This document shows, one piece after another, positions 904 to 32,000 of a stretch of DNA of 32,000 nucleotides. The DNA lies in assembly GCA_004563595.2 (NCBI GenBank), contig CP042461.1:600001-632000 (forward strand), given 5' to 3'. The position numbers and the translations under genes were made by a program. How positions within the stretch are numbered: position 1 is the stretch's first letter; the number at the start of each line of letters is the position of its first letter. The stretch comes from Candidatus Saccharimonadota bacterium. Lineage in GTDB: Bacteria; Patescibacteriota; Gracilibacteria; BD1-5; UBA6164. The notes below the pieces were generated by a model, which saw only the letters and a list, made by a program, of their open reading frames with translations, ran no database searches and had not been told where the DNA came from.

Positions 904-1233
904 TTAACTGATAGAGTAAATATTACTCATAAATGCGATTATGTATAATCAGAGAATCATATAGAGATGCGTAGTAACAAAGTGAATAATTCATACTATT
1001 ATATTGATGAAAATTTGAAATAGGAGAGCTAGATTACTCAGTGATAATACAGCGCTACTATATTCTATATTAAGTCCCATTAGATTATAAGTAAACAATA
1101 AAAATATAGCACTGTATGCAATATAGCTTATAACAGAGAATATTTTTTTCTTTGAGTTTTTTCTTTGCAGAATACTTTGCAGAATATTATAGTTTACTTC
1201 AGGAGTAGTATAACTCTTAATTATTGTTTTCAT
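904..1233 (-). CDS. Small membrane protein, possible anti-sigma factor (109 aa)
   Basis: The track ORF 991-1233 ends at a TGA. Read as Gly, it continues to TAA at 904-906. The protein has hydrophobic segments (FSVISYIAYSAIFLLFTYNLMGL). Its ATG (1231-1233) overlaps the end of the upstream sigma-factor gene, which suggests translational coupling. Confidence 0.55.
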
Positions 1234-1893: not shown

Positions 1894-3021
1894 ATGAAAA
1901 CAAACTTTAATATAAAATACTTTTTAATTTTTACCGTATTAATTTCTTCACTTTTTACGTATTGAAATGTATCAGCATTTGAAATAATGAAATGAGAGGA
2001 TGTTTCTATTGAACAAGAAGTAAATGATGATCTGTATATTGCTTGATGAAGAGTAGAAATTAAAAATATAATACATGGAGATTTAATTATCGCTTGAGGA
2101 GAAATTGAAATTGATTCAGAGGTTTCTGAAGATGTAATCATGGCATGATGAGATATATTCATATCAGCTAATATTTGAGATGACCTGAGAGTTGTAGGCT
2201 GATCAGTTGTTATTGACTCTGTTATTGAGTGAGATGTGATTGTAGGTGCGGGGGATCTAAAAATAAAAAAATGAGCTATTATTAGATGAGATTTAGCTGT
2301 ATGAGCTGGAAGAGTAATTATTGATTGAGAAGTCTTTTGAAAGACTAAAATATCAGCTGATGAATTTATATTAAATTGAAAAATTCATTGAGATGTAGAT
2401 TTATTTGTTGAAAAATTTAAAAACACTTCATGATCATGAATCATGTTATGAAACGTTTTGTATAAAACAAGTGAAAAAAATATTTTAATAGAAGAATCTA
2501 CTCAATGAACAGCTATTTATACAGAAGCAAAATTTCAAAAACATGTAAAAGAAAAAGCGAAAGGCTTTTTATGAAAATTTATTATTATAAAAATAATTTG
2601 AATTTTTGTTTTCTCAACTTTTTTATACTTCTTTTTAGAAAAGGTCTATTTAAAAACTGCAGATAAATTATATAAACAGACATGAAAAGCATTCTTATAT
2701 TGACTCCTTACGATCATATTAACTCCTATTATTGCAATTTTATTATTTATTAGTGTTGTTGGAATACCAATATGAGCTATATTACTTGTATGGTATATAT
2801 TACTTTTATTATTTTTAGATATTATTAATGCTACGGTGTTAACATGAGTTATTCAAAAAAAGTTTTGAGAAAAAATGAATACTCCCATTAAGCTCGTATC
2901 ATTATTATGATTTTCTATACTCTTTTGAGTTACGAACGGTTTGAGTTTATTAATAGGATTCTTTTCTATCGGTGCTATATGTCTCGTGAAGTGAGAAATA
3001 ATTGATAAGATTAGAAAATAA
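1894..3021 (+). CDS. Secreted/membrane protein with bactofilin-like beta-helical repeats and a multi-TM C-terminus (375 aa)
   Basis: It has an N-terminal signal-like helix (IKYFLIFTVLISSLFTYG). This is followed by repeated short units (GDLIIAGGEIEI, MAGGDIFISANIGDDLRVVGGSVVIDSVIEGDVIVGAGDLKI, RGDLAVGAGRVIIDGEVFG) in which most Gly are TGA. Several hydrophobic helices follow. The gene is 1128 nt and ends at TAA 3019-3021. The track ORF 1785-2162(-) is its antisense shadow. Confidence 0.7.
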
Positions 3022-3030
3022 AAAATAATA

Positions 3031-3061
3031 AAAAGATAGATTTATAATCTATCTTTTTTAT
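3031..3061. terminator. Hairpin terminator shared by convergent genes
   Basis: The sequence is aaaaagatagatttataatctatctttttt (stem agatagat/atctatct) with flanking A and T runs. The stop codon of the minus-strand gene (3042-3044) lies inside it. Confidence 0.7.
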
Positions 3062-4103
3062 TTTTTGTATATTCTAGCATATATTTATATCAATCATGCA
3101 CTTCAGTAAACAAAGGAGCCCATTTATTCTCTTTTATAGTATAATTAAAGTGAGAGATTTCTTTTCTATTATGGATTCATTTTTCCATTTCTATTGTTCT
3201 TAGCTGCAGTTCTACTTGTACTTCCTCATTTCTATACGGACTAATATACTTGTAATGTATGCTTTGATATCCGTTTGACTTGGGAGATGTTATATAATCC
3301 TTTTTCTTTGTATAGACACACTTTTCTTCAAATGTTTGTATAAATGCATACAAATCAGGCAAATCATCAAATATTATCCTGACTCAAATAGTATCAGATA
3401 GAGTATTAGAATTTTTCCTTTTCATTTTGTTATACAAGCTGAAGTAAGTTTTTTTTCTTATTTGAATTTTTCATATAACTTTTGCTTCAGTTATTAAGTA
3501 ACTCAGATCATTGATTACTTCAATATGATAGGCTCAAGGTATTTCGTAACTCGTTCATTGTCATAATGTTCATTGCTTAGTAATCTTATATTCTTTTGGA
3601 TATATTTTCTTAAAATAAATATCTTGAAAGAATGCTAATAGTCTTGATTCAGACATAGTTAGGCAGGGGATCATATATCAACATGATTTGTAATAATTTT
3701 CAGTATGTGAAACTATTTTTAAATAATTATCTTCTGATAGGAGAACTGTATAATTAATGATTTCTTTGAATAGAAGCAAATCGGGACTCAATCTCATGGT
3801 AGAATAAGTATATTTTTCAAATTCTCATAGAAGCGTATATTCATAGACTTCTATCATCCTTTTAATATTTTTCCTGTCTCTTTTTTTTAGAATTTTACTA
3901 TCTAAATCAATTATTTTAAAGAAGTAGAGAGCGTATAACAATGAAAGTAATATGTAGTATTCATTATCAGAATATTTCTTAAACCTAATAATAACTATTT
4001 TTATAAGTGATAAATAAGAGGGATCTAATTTGCTTGCATAACTTAATAACAAGCGATTAAATTTATTTCGGTACATTTTATTTTTCAGAATGATCGCTTT
4101 CAT
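3042..4103 (-). CDS. RelA/SpoT-domain nucleotidyltransferase (small alarmone synthetase-like), N-terminal unknown domain, paralog 1 (353 aa)
   Basis: Track ORFs 3825-4103 and 3177-3362 share one frame and are joined through in-frame TGA codons, with no TAA/TAG between them. The C-terminal half carries RelA_SpoT motifs: RKKTYFSLYNKMKRK, DTIGVRIIFDDLPDLY, DYITSPKSNGYQSIHYKY, VELQLRTIEME and SHFNYTIK. The stop is TAA at 3042-3044. Confidence 0.8.
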
Positions 4104-4165
4104 TATTGATACTTTAAAAGACTATATTCTATATATAATAAGAGAAAATAGCTTTTATTCAAAGT

Positions 4166-5230
4166 TTATTTCTGAGGTATTTGCTTTTCTTCCATATACT
4201 TGAGCATATATTTATGTCAGTCATGAACTTCTGTAAATAAAGGGGCCCATTTATGCTCTTTGGTTGTATATGTAAAATGAGAAACCTCATTCCTCTTTTG
4301 AATATTATTATCTATTTCTAGAGTTCTTAATTGAAGCTCTACCAGCACTTCCCCATTTCTATATGGATTAATGTATTTATAATGTATACTTTTATAACCA
4401 TTAGGCTTTGGATTGATTATATAGTCTTTTTTCGATATATAAACAAACTTACTTTCAAAAATATTAATAAATTTATATAAATCAGCTTGGCCATTAAAAA
4501 TAATTCGAACTCAAATACTATTAGAAATAGTGTTACTATTTTTTCTTTGCATTTTATTATATAAACTAAAAAACGTCTTTTTTCTTATTTGAGTTTGTCA
4601 TATAACCCATGCTTCTTTCATCAGATAACTGAGATCATTTACAACTTCAATATGGTAACCTCAGGGGATTTCATAACTATTTCATTTTTGCAAATCAGCT
4701 TTTTTAGTTTCCTTATATTCTTTAGGGTATATTTTTTTGAAATATATATCTTGAAAAAAAGGAAGGAGTCTAGATTCGGTCCATGTTAAATATGGAATCA
4801 TATATCAACATGATTTATAGTATCTACTTGTATTTGATATTATTTTCATGTAGTGATCTTCAGATTGAAGAATCGTAGATTTAATAATAACTTTAAAGAG
4901 TAAAAGGTCGTTACTCAGCTCCATAGTACTGTGCACATATTTTTCATATTCTCATCAGAGAGTATATTCATATACCTCAGTCATTTCTTTAATATTTTTC
5001 CTGTCCTTCTTTGACATTATTGGATCATCTAGATCAACAATCTTAAAAAAGTATAAGGCATACTTCAGAGCAAGAACAACAAAATATTCATTATCTGAAT
5101 ATTTTTTAAAACGAATTATAACTATCTTTACCAGTGACAAATAATGGGGAGCTAAAAAGTCCGAATAGGTACTCAGTACCGCATCAAATTTTTTTTTATA
5201 ATATTTATTCTTCACTATAATCTCCTCCAT
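4166..5230 (-). CDS. RelA/SpoT-domain nucleotidyltransferase, paralog 2 (354 aa)
   Basis: Track ORF 4955-5230 ends in two consecutive TGAs (GG) and continues without TAA/TAG to TAA at 4166-4168 (1065 nt). The motifs are RKKTFFSLYNKMQRK, NSIGVRIIF, DYIINPKPNGYKSIHYKY, VELQLRTLE and SHFTYTTKEHKWAPLFTEVHDG. Confidence 0.8.
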
Positions 5231-5311
5231 TATATTTGCTAACTTAAAATATTATCTTAGGTATTTTAGTGAAATAATATTTTTTTTCAATCTTTTTATT
5301 TTTTAGGGGAG

Positions 5312-6397
5312 TTAATTTTTATGCTTTTTTTCCATGAATTGTAACATATATTTATATCAATCATGGACTTCTGTAAATAAAGGGGCCCACTTGTGCTGTT
5401 TAACTGTGTAAGTGAAATGGGAAACCTCACTCCTATTTTGAATATTATTATCCATTTCTAGAGTTCTGAGTTGAAGTTCTACAAGGACTTCACCATTTCT
5501 ATAAGGATTAATATACTTATAATGTATACTTTGATATCCATTTGGTTTGGGGTTTATTATATAATCTTTTTTTGTTATGTGTACAAATTTATTTTCAAAA
5601 ACATAAATAAATTTGTATAAATCATCTTGTTTCTTAAAAATAATTCTGACTCAAATGCTATCTGAAACTGTATCTCTATTTTTCCTTTGCATTTTATTAT
5701 ATAAACTGAAATAAGTTTTTTTTCTTATTTGAGTTTGTGCTAAAACTTGAGCCTCAGTCATGAGATGACTGAGGTCATTTACAACTTCAATATGATACCC
5801 TCATGGTATTTCATAGTTACTTCATTTTTGTAAGTCACATTTTTTAGTTTCTCTATATTCTTTGGGGTATATTTTTTTAAAATATATATCTTGAAAAAAA
5901 GGAAGAAGTCTTGATTCTGTGAGAGTTAAATAGGGAAGCATATATCCACATGATTTGAAATACTTTTCTTTATTCCATATAGCCCCCATATTTTTATCTT
6001 CTCATAGCAATGCCATGTATTTATCTTCTCACAACAATGCCGAATATTTAAGAATAATATTAAATAACAAAAAATCTTTATCAATATTCATAAGAGTATA
6101 AATATATTTTTCAAAATATCAATTCATAGGGTAAGTATATATTTGAATTACCTTTTTTACCTTTTTTCTATCTCTTTTTGTGATAATAGGGTTACGATAA
6201 TCAATAACTTTAAAGAAACATAAAATGTACTTGAGGGCAAATAAAATAAAATATTCATTATTTGAATATTTCTTAAAGCGGATAATAACGATTTTTAATT
6301 GTGTTAAGTTATTTACACTTAATTCATCTCAATATTTTAGCAATATTGAGTCAAATTTTTTTTGGTATGATTTATTTTTTAATATTATCCCCTCCAT
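5312..6397 (-). CDS. RelA/SpoT-domain nucleotidyltransferase, paralog 3 (361 aa, carries an in-frame 9-aa duplication)
   Basis: The gene runs from ATG at 6395-6397 (MEGIILKNKSYQKKF) to TAA at 5312-5314, 1086 nt, intact under code 25. The motifs are RKKTYFSLYNKMQRK, DSIGVRIIF, DYIINPKPNGYQSIHYKY and VELQLRTLEM. It contains ALLGEDKYM/ALLGEDKNM, produced by a 27-nt tandem duplication at 5988-6041. Confidence 0.75.
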
Positions 6398-6566
6398 AAT
6401 ATTTATTTGATGTTTTAAAATATACTCTCATATCATTCTACTGATAATTACCTTTTTTTCAATAGCTAATCTTTCTTAGGTTATATTATGATAGATAACT
6501 GACCTCAATTTTTGCTTTTTTTATCCATCTGATTATATTGGTGTTATATATTTATAATTATTTTAT

Positions 6567-20628: not shown

Positions 20629-21297
20629 ATGTCAATTGAATGAGGATTAGATTTTACAGAAGCAAGGAATGAAAATAAGTCCTTAGCTGAAATTAGAACC
20701 GAAACTAAAAATAAATCTACTCAACTTAAATCAGATATTAGTAAAGATATTATATCTAAACTAAATAGTAATGAAGGATTAGAAATAAAACAATGAGATA
20801 GTTTGGGATATATTAGTGCATTAACTTTAAAAGGGAATAGTATCAAATGGGATACTCCAGGGAATGCTGATTCTATCTGGCCTGGTGATAAAATTAAAAT
20901 TATTGGAAAAAATGTATTTAGGGATTCAAAATACAATAAAACAGATGAAATGGTTAAGGTTTGAGAGGTAATAAATGGTTATACAAAGATAGAAAAATCA
21001 GAGATAACAGCAGAGGTGTTAGAAGAATTTACACCTTTTGATATTAAGGTTTACTCTGACGATCAAATTCAAACGTTGTCTAGTAAAGTATCGAGTATAA
21101 TTAGTAATGCTCATATTAATAATGAATGATATATTGTTGCTGCTAATTGAAAATACGAAATAACAAATATCGTTTCCAATAAGAATGGTAGCGAAGATAT
21201 ATCGGATACATTGGGGGTAATATTTATTGTTAATTGAAAACATAATTATATATCATTTATAAAACAAAATGTTATTGAAATAACAGAAGAAAAATAA
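20629..21297 (+). CDS. LysM-like domain protein (222 aa)
   Basis: Code-25 ORF of 669 nt. The segment LEIKQGDSLGYISALTLKGNSIKWDTPGNADSIWPGDKIKIIG resembles a LysM repeat (xGDSL..IA...I.PGxKIKI). The rest is unassigned. Confidence 0.5.
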
Positions 21298-21330
21298 GTC
21301 CTTATAGATAACTATAGGGACTTATTTTAT
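21295..21330 (+). terminator. Rho-independent terminator
   Basis: The stem aagtccttatag pairs with ctatagggactt (one G.U pair) and is followed by attttat. Confidence 0.6.
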
Positions 21331-21350: not shown

Positions 21351-21382
21351 GTACTTAACATAATATAACTTATGTTAAGTAC
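21351..21382. other. dif-like Xer recombination site (perfect 13-6-13 palindrome)
   Basis: The sequence is gtACTTAACATAA-TATAAC-TTATGTTAAGTac. The right arm TTATGTTAAGT matches the E. coli XerD arm TTATGTTAAAT at 10 of 11 positions. The left arm ends in CATAA, like the XerC arm. The outline ACTT...AAGT resembles the B. subtilis dif site (ACTTCCTAGAATATATATTATGTAAACT). Confidence 0.6.
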
Positions 21383-21519
21383 ATCTTAACCAATTAAAGG
21401 GATAAGTTGTACTCTCACAAATTACATTAATCACATAAAAATATGTGTTTTAAGATTTTTTAAGCCATTACTGGCTGAAATGCTCATTTTTGTACTTTCA
21501 ATGTATATACACTGCAAAC

Positions 21520-23069: not shown

Positions 23070-23351
23070 TTATAAATTCATAACATTATGAATAGATGCA
23101 TAAAACCAGATAGTCATAATAAGAACACTAAATAGAATCTTGAAATGTCATTCTAGTTTCAGGATTATTAGAAAGATGATCAAAGGAATTATAAGAGTTC
23201 GGAACAAAAAGAAGGGGTAGTCTCAAAGTGTAATAAAATAATTGTACATAGGGTTATACTCCCCTCCTCAGATATTTAAAACAAGCTTGGTGGTAACTGA
23301 ATCTAAAAATGATGTAAAGACTAATCAGATCAATATTAGTTTGTTTTTCAT
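23070..23351 (-). CDS. Phage small integral membrane protein (93 aa)
   Basis: The ATG at 23349-23351 overlaps the end of the Zot-like gene by 16 nt. The protein has three hydrophobic helices (KLILIGLVFTSFL, FFLFRTLIIPLIIFLIIL, ILFSVLIMTIWFYA). Confidence 0.6.
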
Positions 23352-24226
23352 GTGCTTAATAACTTAAGTTTATTAAATAATTTCTTTTTCGGTTTTGCAT
23401 CTTGTGATATTTTAGTGATATACTTATAAATAGATCGTTTTGTGTATATATCAGTTCAAGGACGAATAAGTTCTTTCGTGTTGTAGTCATATACTGGAAA
23501 TATTGGATATAGATTGAGATTCATTCACATAAGAATACCTCATCATACTTGCTCAGCTTTTTCTAAGTCTATTTCTTCTGGGTCTAAGAAGTAAAAGTCT
23601 CTGTACCATCTATAGAATCAGACTCATTTATAGTATTTTCTGTAGTATGTAGCCAGTCTTCTGAATTTCACATCTAATTCCATTGGAGATTGAACTACAC
23701 AGAACATAAGAAGATTAAGTTTTCTTGGTTGATAGATGAAATCTAGGAGTCTTTCATTTTCTCATGAGAAGTTCTTTTTGAAGTTTCTCGGATTAAAATA
23801 TATAGAACATTCATCAAGTACGATATTAAACTTGAGATCCTTTTTTAGGTTTGGGTATTTATTTCTAAACTCTTTTGCATTAAATAGATATTCCTCATAT
23901 TGTTTCCTTGGTTTATGTGTATGTAGCTTCTCAGCATCATCATAGAGGTTTATATATTGGTGATAGTCATAGATGTCATTGAGTATGTTGACGAGATCGT
24001 TATGACTTGATAATTGATAGTCAGTATATCAGGTATAGTAGTTCGTAATATTGATCTCCTTTCAATGTTTACGACCTTTGAGATAAGCAGTGGTATTTTG
24101 TGTTTTTCATGATCAGAACTCTCACATGGTTATAAAGAAACCGTATTTTGTCTTTTTGAAAACGTAATAAGAAAATACTCATAGAAAAGTAGCTATTCAA
24201 AGAAAATATAAGAAAAATTCCAACAT
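23336..24226 (-). CDS. Zot / filamentous-phage pI-like assembly ATPase (296 aa)
   Basis: Walker A is FFITMGEFGSGKTQNTTAYL, with all three Gly as TGA, followed by EINITNYY. Walker B is FNIVLDECSIYFNPRNF. This is the Zot-family P-loop layout. An N-terminal TM helix precedes it. The gene is 891 nt. Confidence 0.75.
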
Positions 24227-27040: not shown

Positions 27041-27063
27041 TCTCTTAAACTTAAGAAATAAAA

Positions 27064-27088
27064 AAAAGTAGAGTATTACTCTACTTTT
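27064..27088. terminator. A/T-flanked hairpin (bidirectional terminator-like)
   Basis: The sequence is aaaagtagag-tatta-ctctactttt. Confidence 0.5.
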
Positions 27089-27238
27089 TACATAAAAGAA
27101 TCGCCAAAAACTTCTATGTAAAAAGTAAAGGGCGATTTAGTTTATTTAAGGCAGTGATTATTTTTACTTAGAAAATCACTAAAAACTAATCGAATTTTTT
27201 ATGTATATGTATTGGGATCTATCCGGAAACCCAGTAAG

Positions 27239-27456: not shown

Positions 27457-27840
27457 TTAAAAAGGTATGTCTTCAATAGTGATTTCTTCTTCTGCTTTCT
27501 GTTGTAACGGTTTTTTACTCGCTCATGCGAATTCTACATTTTGAACGTTGATAGATGTGAAATAGCTTTTATTTCCATCTTCTTTATCAAAAGTAGAGTT
27601 TTCAAGTTCTCATTCTAGGTATACCTTTGTTCATTTTGGTATATATTTCTCAAAGAAGTCAGCTCTTTGTCCCCAAATAGTTAAGTTTATGAAAGTTGTA
27701 GTTTTTACCTCTTCCCCATCTCTATTTTTGTATTTTTTGTTTATAGCAATAACGTTTTTTAAGTATTTATTATCGTTGCTTGTTGTTTTTACTTCACTGT
27801 CTTTGACTATATTTCAAATCAAACATATTCTATTTAACAT
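27457..27840 (-). CDS. ssb: Single-stranded DNA-binding protein, bacterial OB-fold type (127 aa)
   Basis: The translation reads MLNRICLIGNIVKDSEVKTTSNDNKYLKNVIAINKKYKNRDGEEVKTTTFINLTIWGQRADFFEKYIPKGTKVYLEGELENSTF and ends with the canonical acidic tail EEEITIEDIPF. Confidence 0.85.
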
Positions 27841-27944
27841 ATGGTTTTAAAATTAAAAAAAAATAATATATAGCGCTTATATGCCTATATATTATTCATT
27901 TTTATTCGTAAGTCAAATGTATTTTAAATGTAATTTAAATATAC

Positions 27945-28115
27945 TTAACTGTTATTTTTGTAGTTTTGTTTGTATAATTGGATTAATGCGTTTAATTTTT
28001 GTGATCTATTATCAATTTTCATTCCATGAAAATCAACGTCTAGTTCAAAGAATTCTTTTGCTATCTCAGCATCAATAGCGATAGTTGTAAATTTCGTTGG
28101 CGATTTAGTAGTCAT
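27945..28115 (-). CDS. Ribbon-helix-helix-like small regulator (56 aa)
   Basis: The translation is MTTKSPTKFTTIAIDAEIAKEFFELDVDFHGMKIDNRSQKLNALIQLYKQNY. It shows a beta-strand (FTTIAID) followed by two helices, as in Arc/CopG. It is the first gene of the minus-strand phage operon and sits next to a divergent intergenic region. Confidence 0.5.
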   Translation of the reverse strand: MTTKSPTKFTTIAIDAEIAKEFFELDVDFHGMKIDNRSQKLNALIQLYKQNYKNNS

Positions 28116-28340
28116 ACAATATGTATTTAAATAATATTTAGTTATGTAAGTTTATATTATATGAATATTAAATGAATGTCAAATAAAAAGAGTGTTTCAT
28201 AATTTTAATAGATAATCCTATTCCTGATTCTAAAACATATTACAAATAAGTCTAGATAAAATTATAAAAATTTCAAAATATTAAGGTCTTGTTAATGTCT
28301 TATACGTATAATATTTATACTTATTTCATTTTAAAAATAT

Positions 28341-28955
28341 ATGCATAGAAAAATCGAAGCGATTAGAGGTCTAATTAATAATATAGAGAAATTAGAAGAT
28401 TTAGATTTTGACAGTCTTGATAGAATTAAGAAAAAGAGTAATATGGTATTATTAAAAGTTTTTTGAGATGAATCTGCTCATATAAATGGCTTAAAGAATG
28501 CTAATTTTTCAGTTATTTCTTTTACAATTTGAAGAGAAACTCCAATAGGGAGAAAAATAGAGGCTTGGAATAAAGGAAAGAAGAAATTTATTAATACTTT
28601 AGAAGTTTGTATTGATGAGCTAGAATTAGATATATGAGCTAGTGTAATGGAAAAAACACCAATAAAAGAAAGAAAAATGAGTGTTAATATTAAGAATTTT
28701 AATTGAAACTTATCCTGAGAAAATTATTGAACTCAAGAATTTATAAATAGTGGTATTGATGATATAATAGATCAAATTAATGAAAAAAATATTGAATTTA
28801 AAACAGAAATTATAAAATTATTAGAAGAAATTAAATCTGTAAAAGAGCCAGAAGTTAAGTCTAAAAAGTTTTTAGAGGTTATTAATCTTTTGTGATCAGG
28901 TGCTTCAATTAATTCATATATAATGGCTTTAGGTGCTTTTGTAGCAGGTATATAA
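28341..28955 (+). CDS. Hypothetical protein (204 aa) with a hydrophobic C-terminus; first gene of the opposite-strand cassette
   Basis: It runs from ATG 28341 to TAA 28953-28955 (615 nt) with 7 in-frame TGAs. It has coiled-coil-like segments, and its C-terminus SINSYIMALGAFVAGI is hydrophobic. No motif recognised. Confidence 0.55.
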
Positions 28956-29032
28956 TAAAATTTATAGTGATAACACTATAGATTTTATTTGAAAGGTAGA
29001 AGCAATATTCGTAATTGAAATTAATAAATTAT

Positions 29033-30190
29033 ATGAAAAAAAAACATAGAATTAAAATTAAAGCTCAAATACAGGAATTCTCAAGTAGTTTTGTAGAAAC
29101 TTTTATAAAATTACTTATGTCTTTTGAAAGAGTGCAACCAAATATTAGAGAAGCCGTACCTGATATTTTTAATATAGCTTTGGAGGATATTGCAGTTGAT
29201 TCTTATTTCTCTGAAAATAGAAAACATGTAATGATTCTTTTTAAAGAAAGGAAAAATAAGAGTTTTAATTTTAATCTTACAAAAGGTAATGTCTTTGATG
29301 AACTAGATGAAACAGGTCAGTGGAAAAGACCAAATATACCGGTTTGTTTTAATTTTAAAGGTTGAACTGGTTTTATGCAAGAAATAACTATATCTGGTAT
29401 GAAACCTTTCAATATAGAAGGTGATAAAGTAAAAATTACATTCTCAGATTTTAAATTTAATTTGCCAAATGGAGATAATAAAAAGATATCTTTTGGGTAC
29501 ATTTTTTCTTATAGTCTTTTTAAAGATGAAGTTTTAAGTAATACAGAAAACTATGTTGAAAATTTAATTTATTCTTTTTGGGACTATTATAGACTCTATA
29601 AACATAAACTTAGTTCTTCAATTGATGAAAAAAAATATAAAAAATACCAGAAATGAATTTTAGAAGATATGGAAAGATTATTTTTTAATGAAGAAATAAA
29701 AGAACAAGAAATAGATAACTTTATAACAGAAAATCCAATTATTTTAGAAAGGTGCTTATTTCTTACTCCAATATTACCACAACAGATATTAAATAACCTT
29801 GTGAAAGAAAACTTTGATCAAGATATGATACCTGATTTAATATGTCAAGATATTAATGACAGTTGGATAATTGTTGATTATAAAAGAGCAAAAAGAATAA
29901 TTAAGAAAAATGATACAGCTCGTGCAGATATAAAATCTGAGGTAAATGAATTAAAAATCCAACTAAAAAACTATAGAGAATATTTTAATGAAGAAAAACA
30001 TAGGAACAATTTTGCGAAGATCACAGGATATAAAATTCCTTCCAAACCAAAAACAAAATGACTTATAGGGTATGTTTTAGATTCTGAGAGAAAAATATTT
30101 GAAGATTCTATTGAAGATAACCCAAATCGGATTGATATAATTACTTATGATGAACTTTATAAGAGATTTAAAAAGTTTTATGAGTCTTAA
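29033..30190 (+). CDS. Shedu-like (DUF4263 / SduA C-terminal) PD-(D/E)xK nuclease with a novel N-terminal domain (385 aa)
   Basis: Track ORFs 29015-29365, 29375-29656 and 29669-30061 share one frame and are joined by single TGA codons. The C-terminal half reads FITENPIILERCLF...MIPDLICQDINDSWIIVDYKRAKRIIKK...KIQLKNYREYF...KGLIGYVLDSE...RIDIITYDELYKRF. This is the D...(D/E)xK core, the Q..Y motif and the terminal TYD-hL that I recall as typical of DUF4263. The start could instead be TTG at 29015. Confidence 0.6.
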
Positions 30191-30212
30191 ATAATATACT
30201 TATATAAATAAA

Positions 30213-30246
30213 AAAAGGCTAGACTTTCATCTAACCTTTTTTTTAA
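30213..30246. terminator. Hairpin terminator between convergent genes
   Basis: The stem aaggctaga pairs with tctaacctt (one mismatch), with an A-run before and a T-run after. Confidence 0.6.
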
Positions 30247-30419
30247 CCTTTAAAGGTTATCTTGTGGACTATTCTATCCACTCAAAATATATCTCTTGGA
30301 TTATCTCATTTTATGAGATCTCATTTCTTTAGCACTGTGGTTAAATCAAATGAACAATAGTTTTGCTCATCGTAGTGTGTTCAGTCGGCATCAACTGACT
30401 CTATTGCATATTCGTACAT
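30243..30419 (-). CDS. Hypothetical small protein (58 aa)
   Basis: It runs from ATG at 30417-30419 to TAA at 30243-30245 (177 nt) with 4 in-frame TGAs. The translation starts MYEYAIESVDADGTHYDEQNYCSFDL. It lies directly downstream of the structured inverted-repeat region. Confidence 0.4.
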
Positions 30420-30435
30420 AATATAAAAATTGTAA

Positions 30436-30517
30436 AAGGACCCTAGCAGGAAGATCACCACAATCGTACACCTGCTAAGGTCCTTAAATAAGGTGATCTA
30501 TTTAAATACGATTGTGG
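30436..30517. repeat. Compound inverted-repeat element (15-bp stem, with a 20-nt loop that is itself complementary to two flanking boxes)
   Basis: aaggaccctagcagg (30436-30450) pairs with cctgctaaggtcctt (30471-30485). Within the loop, gatcacc (30453-59) and ccacaatcgta (30458-68) are complementary to ggtgatc (30492-98) and tacgattgtgg (30507-17) respectively. Confidence 0.7.
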
Positions 30518-30713
30518 TATATTAGTTATAGCTATAAATAAATTATTTGCAAATTGTTTTTAAATGTAAAATAAATGACGTCACTGGAGTATAGCATAAT
30601 AGTTTTTATAAAAGCAAAAGTTTTTTCGACTTTCTTGGCTTTGTGTAGGTGATATATCGATATTATAAGTACAAATAAACTATTGATTATAATGAAGTGA
30701 TATTAACAGGGCA

Positions 30714-30857
30714 TTAATATTGAGGATTAAAGTAATAATTTCTTTGATAGGTTAATATTACTGAGTCGAACTTTTCGTCTCATGGGAGGAATTCTTGAGT
30801 GGTATATTGTTTATAGCTTTCTAATGTAAGATTTGGTACTTGTGTTTTTAAAGACAT
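30714..30857 (-). CDS. Hypothetical small protein (47 aa)
   Basis: It runs from ATG at 30855-30857 to TAA at 30714-30716. The translation is MSLKTQVPNLTLESYKQYTTQEFLPGDEKFDSVILTYQRNYYFNPQY. It is supported only as an ORF in the phage operon. Confidence 0.35.
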
Positions 30858-31043: not shown

Positions 31044-32000
31044 TTAAGCACTTATCACATTTCACTTTTTTTCATAGGATTTCTTTCATAATTTAATTTT
31101 AGGTTTTATAGTATATTTCTTTAAGATTCTATTAATTATAGATGCTTCAAGTCATTGTTCTTGTAAATATATGATTAAATTTTCTAGTAGATCATATCAA
31201 TTAAATAGTTTTCTATTCACAAGTTTGAATTGTTTCACATTATATCATTTACTTTTAGCATATTCATATTGATATAAGCTAGTTCTATCTCTTATAGTCT
31301 CTTTTGATTCTTTTTGAACTCATAGAACGGTATCAAAGAGTCAAACATATCATGTATTATTTTGAATAGTTTTTAAATATCAGTGTGACCTAGAGAGATA
31401 ATCTTTTGGAATATGTCAGTGCTGTAAATAATAACTTTTTAGATCAAATTTTACGTTAGTATATTTTTTGAGCTCTATATCTTTGTAATGTAACTCGTGT
31501 TCTGTATATCTATTGAAGTATTTTGTAAATATTCTTTGAATAGGTTTATTTCTATTCTCTAATATATCAGAGATGGAGAAATCTGTTATTCTTTTACATT
31601 CTTCGGGTCTGAGTTCTAGTTCAATTCTTCTTACATCATGATTATGTATGAGGTGAGGATAGAGGAATCATTTTTGTTTTTTCCAGGTATCAAGTATTTT
31701 ATCATAAACTCTAAATAGAAATTTACGGTTTGAATTACTTTGTGGATTATTGATATAGTAGGTTTGACTAAACTCAGGGTGTTTTTTGTCATTTCATATT
31801 TCAGAAAAGAAATTTACGTCTTTGAGGAGTTGGGATTTAATCTTTTTAATATCATAGGGTAAATCTATAGCAATATCTAACCTGTGTAAATCTGTTTTAT
31901 CATCTGTGAAAAATGCTTCATAGAATTCTTTTATGGAGAAATCTAGTTTGTCGCTCTTTTCTAAAACAAAAAAAGTAGAATAAAAAACTACTTTATCTTT
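31044..32000 (-). CDS. Rolling-circle replication initiator, Rep_trans family (RstA / pT181 RepC-like); the N-terminus lies beyond the window
   Basis: The frame is open from the window edge to TAA at 31044-31046 (957 nt). The motifs are DLHRLDIAIDLPYD, then NRKFLFRVYDKILDTWKKQ and HDVRRIELELRPEECKRI. This matches the RhDhAhD ... hRhYDK ... hRhEhEhR pattern of replication initiation factor proteins. Confidence 0.7.

Follow-up and report, generated by a model that had tools for sequence, protein, structure and literature searches.

A divergent Shedu nuclease gene and a PDC-S35-type gene as probable defence cargo of an inovirus-like element in a code-25 Gracilibacteria genome

We analysed a 32,000-nucleotide stretch of the chromosome of Candidatus Gracilibacteria bacterium 28_42_T64 (contig CP042461.1, positions 600,001 to 632,000; hereafter the window), in which two adjacent plus-strand genes, here referred to as the cassette, lie among minus-strand phage-like genes. 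Gene 1 (QFR39174.1, A9Q91_02980; 28341..28955) encodes 204 amino acids (aa) and contains 7 in-frame TGAs, and gene 2 (QFR39175.1, A9Q91_02985; 29033..30190) encodes 385 aa from an ATG and contains 3 in-frame TGAs; both products match, exactly, proteins annotated as hypothetical that are encoded on a contig of 1.34 Mb. The cassette is probably composed of two independent single-gene defence modules that are accessory cargo of an inovirus-like element of ~11 kb. By profile and predicted fold, gene 2 is a genuine but divergent Shedu (SduA) protein with predicted nuclease activity. Gene 1 is read, from its sequence, as an independent defence-associated protein whose N-terminal part is a swappable module for sensing or assembly and whose small C-terminal module is uncharacterised. 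An earlier note on this DNA, made from the letters without database searches, had suggested that the pair might be an undescribed two-gene Shedu variant; its Shedu call is upheld here, and the pairing is not supported, as the two genes do not co-occur at the four informative Shedu homologs.

We call gene 2 a Shedu protein because it matches the full PF14082 (SduA_C) profile and the PADLOC SduA models, has Shedu structures as its nearest fold neighbours, and keeps motifs I to IV invariant throughout its subfamily. The nuclease domain (aa 223-376, 29699..30160, plus strand) lies in the C-terminal half that the earlier note had recognised as DUF4263/SduA, and it matches PF14082 at 27.8 bits (gathering threshold (GA) 27) over profile positions 3-159 of 159. 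The PADLOC models PDLC00377 and PDLC00397 match with E-values of 2.4e-10 and 1.1e-6, respectively, and the borderline Pfam call is corroborated by the subfamily members P0003 and P0008. Six further members of the subfamily were found with a word-indexed search of 5.8 billion proteins, and their identity to gene 2 is 50-57%, with one at 32-33%. The alignment of these seven sequences underlies both the motif conservation described below and an AlphaFold2 model (mean predicted local distance difference test (pLDDT) score 84.9, predicted template modelling (pTM) score 0.78). The top four PDB matches of this model in Foldseek are all Shedu, namely E. coli SduA (8ps5 and 8ps4) and two chains of B. 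cereus 8ti9, with a probability of 1.00 and a target template modelling (TM) score of 0.61-0.62 to 8ti9, the B. cereus nuclease-domain octamer. Generic restriction enzymes and Can2/Card1 nucleases rank behind these chains with much weaker scores. Searches of the PDB by sequence, conducted with gene 2 as a single sequence, with a four-sequence profile, and with the N-terminal domain alone, returned no Shedu and no meaningful match, so membership in the family rests on profile and fold.

The predicted PD-(D/E)xK motifs of gene 2 (29747..29962, plus strand) were located from subfamily conservation and the AlphaFold2 model. They comprise E239 (motif I, 29747..29749), D268 (motif II, 29834..29836), D282 and K284 (motif III, 29876..29884), and Q310 (motif IV, 29960..29962), all on the plus strand and all invariant in 7/7 subfamily sequences, down to 33% identity. 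The strings that had been quoted as family features (IPDLICQD...WIIVDYKRAK, KIQLKNYREYF, KGLIGYV, and IDIITYDEL) are all present in gene 2. B. cereus Shedu has E204 as motif I, D249 as motif II, E264/K266 as motif III, and Q295 as motif IV (Gu et al., bioRxiv 10.1101/2023.08.10.552793); relative to this series, and mapped by motif order and secondary structure rather than by residue-level superposition, the motifs of gene 2 have the same order and similar spacing. A structural comparison with the SduA nuclease had been proposed; the fold agrees, and for the catalytic residues the agreement is one of order and spacing, by motif. In the model, D268 opens the strand 269-273 and D282-x-K284 closes the strand 278-284. 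The motifs are thus placed, as modelled, where a PD-(D/E)xK site is expected, and clustering of their side chains is a prediction.

The model divides gene 2 into an N-terminal part with a long N-terminal helix and a beta-rich domain (aa 1-159, with the ~6 strands at aa 53-159), a helical linker (aa 160-217), and the nuclease from about aa 223. This modelled arrangement of N-terminal regulatory domain, helical linker, and C-terminal nuclease is the Type-1 Shedu architecture. The N-terminal ~215 aa have no Pfam match and no PDB match by sequence, in line with the earlier description of this region as unrecognisable, and it may represent a class of sensor that the 79 published families do not cover.

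Phages often use PD-(D/E)xK nucleases in DNA metabolism, and the window has no recognisable integrase, both of which would suit a reading of gene 2 as a phage housekeeping nuclease used for replication, recombination, or integration of the element. We regard this as very improbable. In both profile and fold comparisons, Shedu specifically ranks first, above the generic restriction and Can2/Card1 nucleases, and the gene lies on the strand opposite to the phage operon and has a lower guanine-plus-cytosine (GC) content. Its homologs occur in non-phage contexts (ABC transporter genes, a TruB gene, and a ParE toxin-antitoxin pair), and no relatives of gene 2 were found in IMG/VR, scanned with the Shedu alignment, or among GenBank phages, searched with tblastn. 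A scan of genome contigs with the same alignment also gave no relatives, and it did not recover the source genome itself. A divergent Shedu nuclease therefore remains our reading of gene 2.

Both genes depend on an alternative genetic code. The window is AT-rich (GC about 0.22-0.35), and TGA is a sense codon in it. We assigned code 25 (TGA=Gly) because in-frame TGAs in conserved host proteins fall on expected Gly positions: the Walker A motif of a UvrD-like host gene is encoded as A-TGA-P-TGA-T-TGA-KT, which gives AGPGTGKT, and the host gene ThyA has a TGA at an expected Gly position. The cassette follows the same rule, as codon 343 of gene 2 is a TGA aligned to a Gly that is invariant across the Shedu subfamily, and codon 42 of gene 1 is a TGA aligned to the conserved 'FG' of the gene-1 family. 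As had been noticed before, gene 2 is a single 385-aa open reading frame (ORF) under code 25, and the standard code splits it into three ORFs of 116, 93, and 130 aa; an alternative TTG start lies at 29015. The ORFs of the cassette are far beyond chance, because the stop-free run of gene 2 extends over 391 codons, whereas 1000 shuffles gave runs of 88 codons on average and 182 at most; the chance of 385 open codons is about 2e-14. Homologs conserved over the full length exist for both genes. The search for these homologs also bears on the code: restriction of the Shedu subfamily to code-25 hosts was considered and ruled out, as the homolog on contigs L001/L002 ends at a TGA stop. In a separate observation, the Shedu gene on contig L005 (885..2036) has an in-frame TAG at codon 25 (957..959), which the gene caller read as Gln (P0008); this contig may belong to a phage or organism in which TAG is recoded; alternatively, the gene could be a Shedu pseudogene.

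The two genes lie on the same strand with a 77-bp spacer. Within the spacer, we read from the sequence a weak AT-rich hairpin, TTATAGTG-ATAA-CACTATAG, and, after it, a T-rich tract (28962..28990, plus strand). This is a possible weak terminator or attenuator, and it falls below the G-C threshold of the terminator scanner. A bidirectional intrinsic-terminator hairpin with an A-run, a 15-pair stem, and a T-run closes the cassette at 30210..30243; it is the sole terminator-like site within 27800..30700, where shuffled sequences have 0.3 on average. On the other side, an ORF-free divergent intergenic region (28116..28340) separates gene 1 from a minus-strand 56-aa gene and is presumably the promoter/operator region of the cassette. 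Promoter-like hexamers occur there on both strands, at a frequency not above that of shuffles.

This arrangement raises the question of whether the pair is one two-component Shedu system in which gene 1 is a dedicated sensor, regulator, or DNA-binding subunit like KELA. The shared strand, the distance of 77 bp, and the single strong terminator after gene 2 would fit such a system, the identical low GC of both genes suggests joint acquisition, and two-component Shedu systems are known to exist (PMC12577705). We nevertheless consider it unlikely on the evidence of the homologs. Contigs were recovered for six/six subfamily homologs, four of which are distinct and have a readable upstream gene, on short contigs. 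Upstream of the Shedu gene are two LivG/LivF-like ABC ATPases on L001/L002, an unrelated ORF on L003, and TruB on L004. On L005, which carries the most distant member of the subfamily, a 205-aa protein is encoded directly upstream, and its size and position recall gene 1; the two are, however, unrelated (BLAST E-value about 7; hhalign probability 0.07%) and opposite in topology, with the transmembrane helix of the L005 protein at the N-terminus. Overall, a relative of gene 1 was found upstream of 0/4 informative homologs by BLAST, phmmer, and hhalign (probability <1%), and conversely the sole full-length homolog of gene 1 (P0009) does not adjoin a Shedu gene, so the suggestion that gene 1 is a partner of the nuclease is not supported. 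Gene 2 also has its own ~215-aa N-terminal domain and linker, as expected for the Type-1 single-protein architecture. As its upstream neighbours among the informative homologs are unrelated to gene 1, the Shedu gene behaves as a stand-alone mobile gene, which is what is expected for the family; on L001 it is followed downstream by a ParE toxin-antitoxin pair and an ORF6N protein. Genes 1 and 2 most likely act independently.

Gene 1 had been described as lacking a recognisable family. This does not hold, because its N-terminal half is the N-terminal module (N-module) of PDC-S35: the PADLOC model (PDLC05005) matches aa 4-105 with an E-value of 1e-7 over profile positions 6-108 of 264. In the AlphaFold2 model, this helical module (aa 1-105, 28341..28655, plus strand) is an N-terminal helical bundle with pLDDT >93 over most of residues 1-100. 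It is followed by a disordered linker (aa 103-125) and by a helical C-terminal region (aa 126-204) of four helices, which has a small-residue-rich, weakly hydrophobic tail and a final helix of low confidence. The C-terminus had been called hydrophobic; it is so only marginally (Kyte-Doolittle 1.68 over 15 aa). Gene 1 has no match in Pfam, including the TIR family PF10137, and no similar fold in the PDB or BFVD.

The word-indexed protein search with gene 1 returned gene 1 itself alone, and an exhaustive HMMER search returned 36 representatives. P0009 (194 aa, 36% identity, E-value 1.7e-21) is the sole full-length relative among them, P0025 shares the C-terminal half of gene 1, and the remaining relatives match about residues 3-110 alone. 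The C-terminal ~80 aa, which have no match in Pfam, the PDB, or BFVD, are common to gene 1, P0009, and P0025 only. PDC-S35 matches 35/36 of the relatives. The Cap12/PycTIR-type TIR domain (PF10137) is carried by 16/36, and a protein kinase, an AbiTii, and a Hypoth_Ymh domain occur in one relative each. The PDC-S35 N-module is thus swappable, with TIR in many relatives and a kinase, AbiTii, Hypoth_Ymh, or a small helical C-terminus in single cases, and this swapping is a handle on what the module senses.

Under code 25, P0009 ends in LGSGASINSMIIALSSLIV, which corresponds to LGSGASINSYIMALGAFVAGI in gene 1. Its gene lies in a tightly packed same-strand cluster (contig L008, 9321..15244; code 25, GC 0.19) that encodes, in order, an S24 repressor-like protein, P0009, SMODS, SLATT_4, an Rx4H (HEPN-like) protein of 185 aa with the motif RNNFFH, and split N6/N4 methyltransferases. 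The cluster contains no Shedu gene and looks like a defence island in another recoded Candidate Phyla Radiation (CPR) genome. Both known full-length members of the gene-1 family therefore adjoin defence genes, and these differ in each case. Separately, on L009/L010/L011, the P0025 gene repeatedly follows one for a ParA-like ATPase (CbiA/AAA_31) and another of 63 aa, with which it overlaps; such an order suggests a module for partition or maintenance of a plasmid or phage.

Whether gene 1, P0009, and P0025 constitute a novel functional class with the PDC-S35 N-module as its base is doubtful. If they did, one option is that a tiny tail-anchored helical module could be an effector variant that replaces the TIR NADase. 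A more striking option is that gene 1 could be a phage-encoded, effector-less decoy, whose N-module poisons PDC-S35-type TIR defences of the host and so disarms them. Gene 1 is phage-borne and retains the N-module at high model confidence with no TIR or other enzymatic domain, as a decoy would, and counter-defence genes have been reported in accessory loci of filamentous and tailless prophages (PMC11630473). If this were true, genes for defence (Shedu) and for counter-defence would stand side by side in the inovirus cassette. The decoy reading is improbable in our judgement: conservation of the C-terminal ~80 aa, with the LGSGASINS tail, in P0009 and P0025 suggests that this part has its own function; the same-strand neighbours of P0009 look like a defence island and are not phage genes; and no PDC-S35 TIR gene was seen within the 32-kb window. 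We thus retain the reading of gene 1 as a defence-associated protein in its own right.

The earlier note had placed the cassette within a filamentous prophage on the opposite strand. The opposite strand is confirmed, as the two plus-strand genes are flanked by minus-strand genes on both sides, and a location inside a filamentous-phage-like integrated element is supported. The cassette looks like acquired cargo (a moron) within a filamentous-phage-like element because it lies on the opposite strand, has the lowest GC, is closed by its own bidirectional terminator, and has phage genes on both sides; the element as a whole is bracketed by an 80-bp direct repeat. GC is 0.246-0.247 for the cassette genes, the lowest values measured, compared with 0.26-0.30 for the phage genes and 0.28-0.34 for the host genes.

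To the left of the cassette, on the minus strand, are the 56-aa gene (27945..28115), divergent from gene 1, and a gene for a single-stranded DNA-binding protein (SSB; 27457..27840; PF00436 E-value 1.8e-27, phrog_44 E-value 1.6e-32). Further to the left is a gene for a pI/Zot-like morphogenesis ATPase (23336..24226, minus strand), which has a partial match to phrog_1675, 'morphogenesis (protein I of M13)', with an E-value of 4e-5, and in whose sequence we read a Walker A motif (GSGKT) and a Walker B-like motif (LDEC). A pI/Zot-like ATPase is a hallmark gene of inoviruses. The minus-strand genes on this side also include small hydrophobic ORFs, one of which encodes an 85-aa coat-like transmembrane protein, and a gene for a 608-aa protein. 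To the right, after two small ORFs, is a gene for a putative rolling-circle Rep (31047..32000, minus strand, continuing beyond the window end), the full 422 aa of which were recovered from L012, a 9.5-kb Logan contig of the same genome. This protein has the motifs GLDHLEFT, RLDIAIDL, and VRRIELELR and no match in Pfam, PHROGs, or tblastn searches, including tblastn against GenBank phages, and it is called Rep from motif resemblance. Among the labels given to these genes from sequence alone, that of the SSB is supported by PF00436, that of Rep has no profile or BLAST match behind it, and the ribbon-helix-helix (RHH)-like label of the 56-aa gene is unverified, as this gene, like the 608-aa protein and the small ORFs, has no Pfam or PHROG match. 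Palindromes in and beside the phage module may be operators or terminators: a 52-bp imperfect palindrome between the SSB and 56-aa genes (27854..27904), one of 27 bp after the coat-like gene (27063..27089), and one of 38 bp just left of the left copy of the repeat described next (21291..21328).

An 80-bp direct repeat suggests candidate boundaries of the element. The left copy is at 21358..21437 (plus strand), and the right copy, with 94% identity, lies 717 bp past the window end (L012 9392..9471, window-equivalent 32638..32717), so that the two bracket ~11.3 kb. L012 is 100% identical to the window sequence, extends 717 bp past it, and ends at the repeat. The repeats may be att-type boundaries or mark the start of a tandem copy. 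An independent circular episome was considered as the source of L012 and ruled out, because its sequence matches the chromosome at 100% identity and its ends do not overlap. The window contains no tRNA or Rfam family, and hence no tRNA att site could be assigned.

A non-coding stretch of 475 nt (30246..30720) separates the cassette terminator from the small minus-strand ORFs. Folded as single-stranded DNA, it has a predicted free energy of -44.3 kcal/mol (z -2.8), is more stable than 100/100 shuffles, and forms a long hairpin around CCACAATCGTA...TACGATTGTGG. The filamentous element may have its origin or its packaging signal in this structured stretch.

If the cassette functions in defence, gene 2 would assemble through DUF4263 into a tetramer, by analogy with the SduA proteins of B. 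cereus and E. coli, and its N-terminal domain and helical linker would hold the PD-(D/E)xK site (E239/D268/D282/K284/Q310) inactive. A feature of invading DNA or of infection would activate the protein, which would then cut or nick the DNA of the invader, and the lysogen together with its resident prophage would be protected (superinfection exclusion). The N-terminal bundle of gene 1 is presumably a sensing or assembly domain, and its C-terminal helical module and weakly hydrophobic tail may act on the membrane in a manner resembling abortive infection. In this scheme, we infer the oligomeric state, the trigger, the anti-phage activity, the role of the gene 1 C-terminus, and expression from the prophage. 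Deletion of the N-terminal domain makes the enzyme toxic in both B. cereus and E. coli Shedu, and E. coli SduA senses free double-stranded DNA ends. Were gene 2 to sense such ends in the same way, a circular rolling-circle phage would be a compatible carrier; this idea stays speculation because the N-terminal domain of gene 2 differs from that of E. coli SduA.

Several observations weigh against the proposed combination of two defence genes on an inovirus-like carrier. The PF14082 score of gene 2 is just 0.8 bits over the threshold, and the Shedu chains in the PDB are undetected by phmmer and hmmsearch with gene 2. The non-co-occurrence of the two genes comes from a small sample (four informative homologs on short contigs), and the 77-bp same-strand gap, with at most a weak hairpin, leaves room for co-transcription and lineage-specific coupling. 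The tail of gene 1 is marginally hydrophobic in a low-confidence part of the model. The anti-phage roles of both genes are predictions from sequence and fold. For the carrier, the inovirus call draws on one partial PHROG match, the SSB, gene sizes and order, and an unverified Rep, and the element has no relatives in IMG/VR, scanned with the pI-like protein, or among deposited phages. Because of this lack of relatives in IMG/VR and GenBank phages, the assignment of the element to inoviruses is moderately secure.

Two further features of the window lie away from the element. Three tandem paralogous genes on the minus strand (3042..6436) encode proteins of 353, 354, and 374 aa and have about 75% nucleotide identity. 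A 375-aa ORF on the plus strand (1894..3021) contains 32 in-frame TGAs, which make its product unusually Gly-rich under code 25, and has an N-terminal signal- or transmembrane-like segment.

Among known systems, gene 2 is closest to Type-1 Shedu, represented by the proteins of B. cereus B4264 (8ti8/8ti9) and E. coli (8ps4/8ps5). Shedu systems consist of one protein and are diverse in their N-terminal sensor domains, of which 79 families have been described, and 121 instances were found in prophages (bioRxiv 10.1101/2023.08.10.552793). Like these proteins, gene 2 combines a C-terminal DUF4263 nuclease, in which motifs I-IV are present, with a helical linker and a distinct regulatory domain at the N-terminus, and it occurs as a stand-alone gene in variable, mobile contexts. 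It differs in motif III, which is D-x-K in gene 2 and E-x-K in B. cereus, in its identity of only 13-16% to the solved Type-1 structures, and in its N-terminal region, a long helix and ~6-stranded beta domain that matches no Pfam family or PDB sequence. Moreover, in contrast to the solved examples, its host is a code-25 CPR bacterium and its carrier an inovirus-like element.

The cassette also recalls KELShedu, a two-component Shedu composed of KELA and KELB (PMC12577705), in that a small same-strand gene of unknown family precedes the gene for the DUF4263 nuclease. However, the subfamily of gene 2 has no conserved upstream gene in the four informative homologs, and gene 1 belongs to a different and separately distributed family defined by the PDC-S35 N-module. 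PDC-S35 itself is a phage defence candidate only, listed in PADLOC-DB v2, and the literature searched contained no mention of it. It consists of the N-module and a Cap12/PycTIR-type TIR domain (PF10137). Gene 1 shares the N-terminal ~105-aa helical module (aa 4-105), but it lacks the TIR domain and matches the first 108 of 264 profile positions.

The carrier has parallels in filamentous prophages. Those of marine Vibrio have accessory hotspots enriched in defence genes (PMC11630473), and the KKP module is defence cargo of the filamentous prophage Pf (PMC11341870). In common with these, the element described here is a small prophage with non-structural, defence-type genes at a discrete locus beside regulatory genes. 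Unlike the marine Vibrio and Pf examples, it resides in a CPR/Gracilibacteria host that uses code 25; its cargo includes Shedu, a type not mentioned in the text of the Vibrio survey (PMC11630473); and neither IMG/VR nor the GenBank phages contain detectable relatives of its phage lineage.

Experimental knowledge of the conflict between CPR/Patescibacteria and phages is sparse, and the alternative code hides such genes from standard annotation, as code 11 breaks this Shedu into three fragments. The locus offers a concrete, testable case of a filamentous-type prophage with immune cargo in a code-25 bacterium, and known Shedu diversity gains a divergent lineage whose sensor domain is unclassified. 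Prophage-borne Shedu, Shedu of CPR bacteria (with examples in Patescibacteria and Gracilibacteria), two-component Shedu, defence loci of filamentous prophages, and predicted inoviruses of CPR bacteria have all been published, and for this reason the locus adds one more example to known kinds of system and does not represent a new two-gene system. Modest novelty lies in the unclassified N-terminal domain of the Shedu protein and in the C-terminal region that gene 1 joins to the PDC-S35 N-module; current concepts of these systems are unchanged and are extended to a poorly sampled branch.

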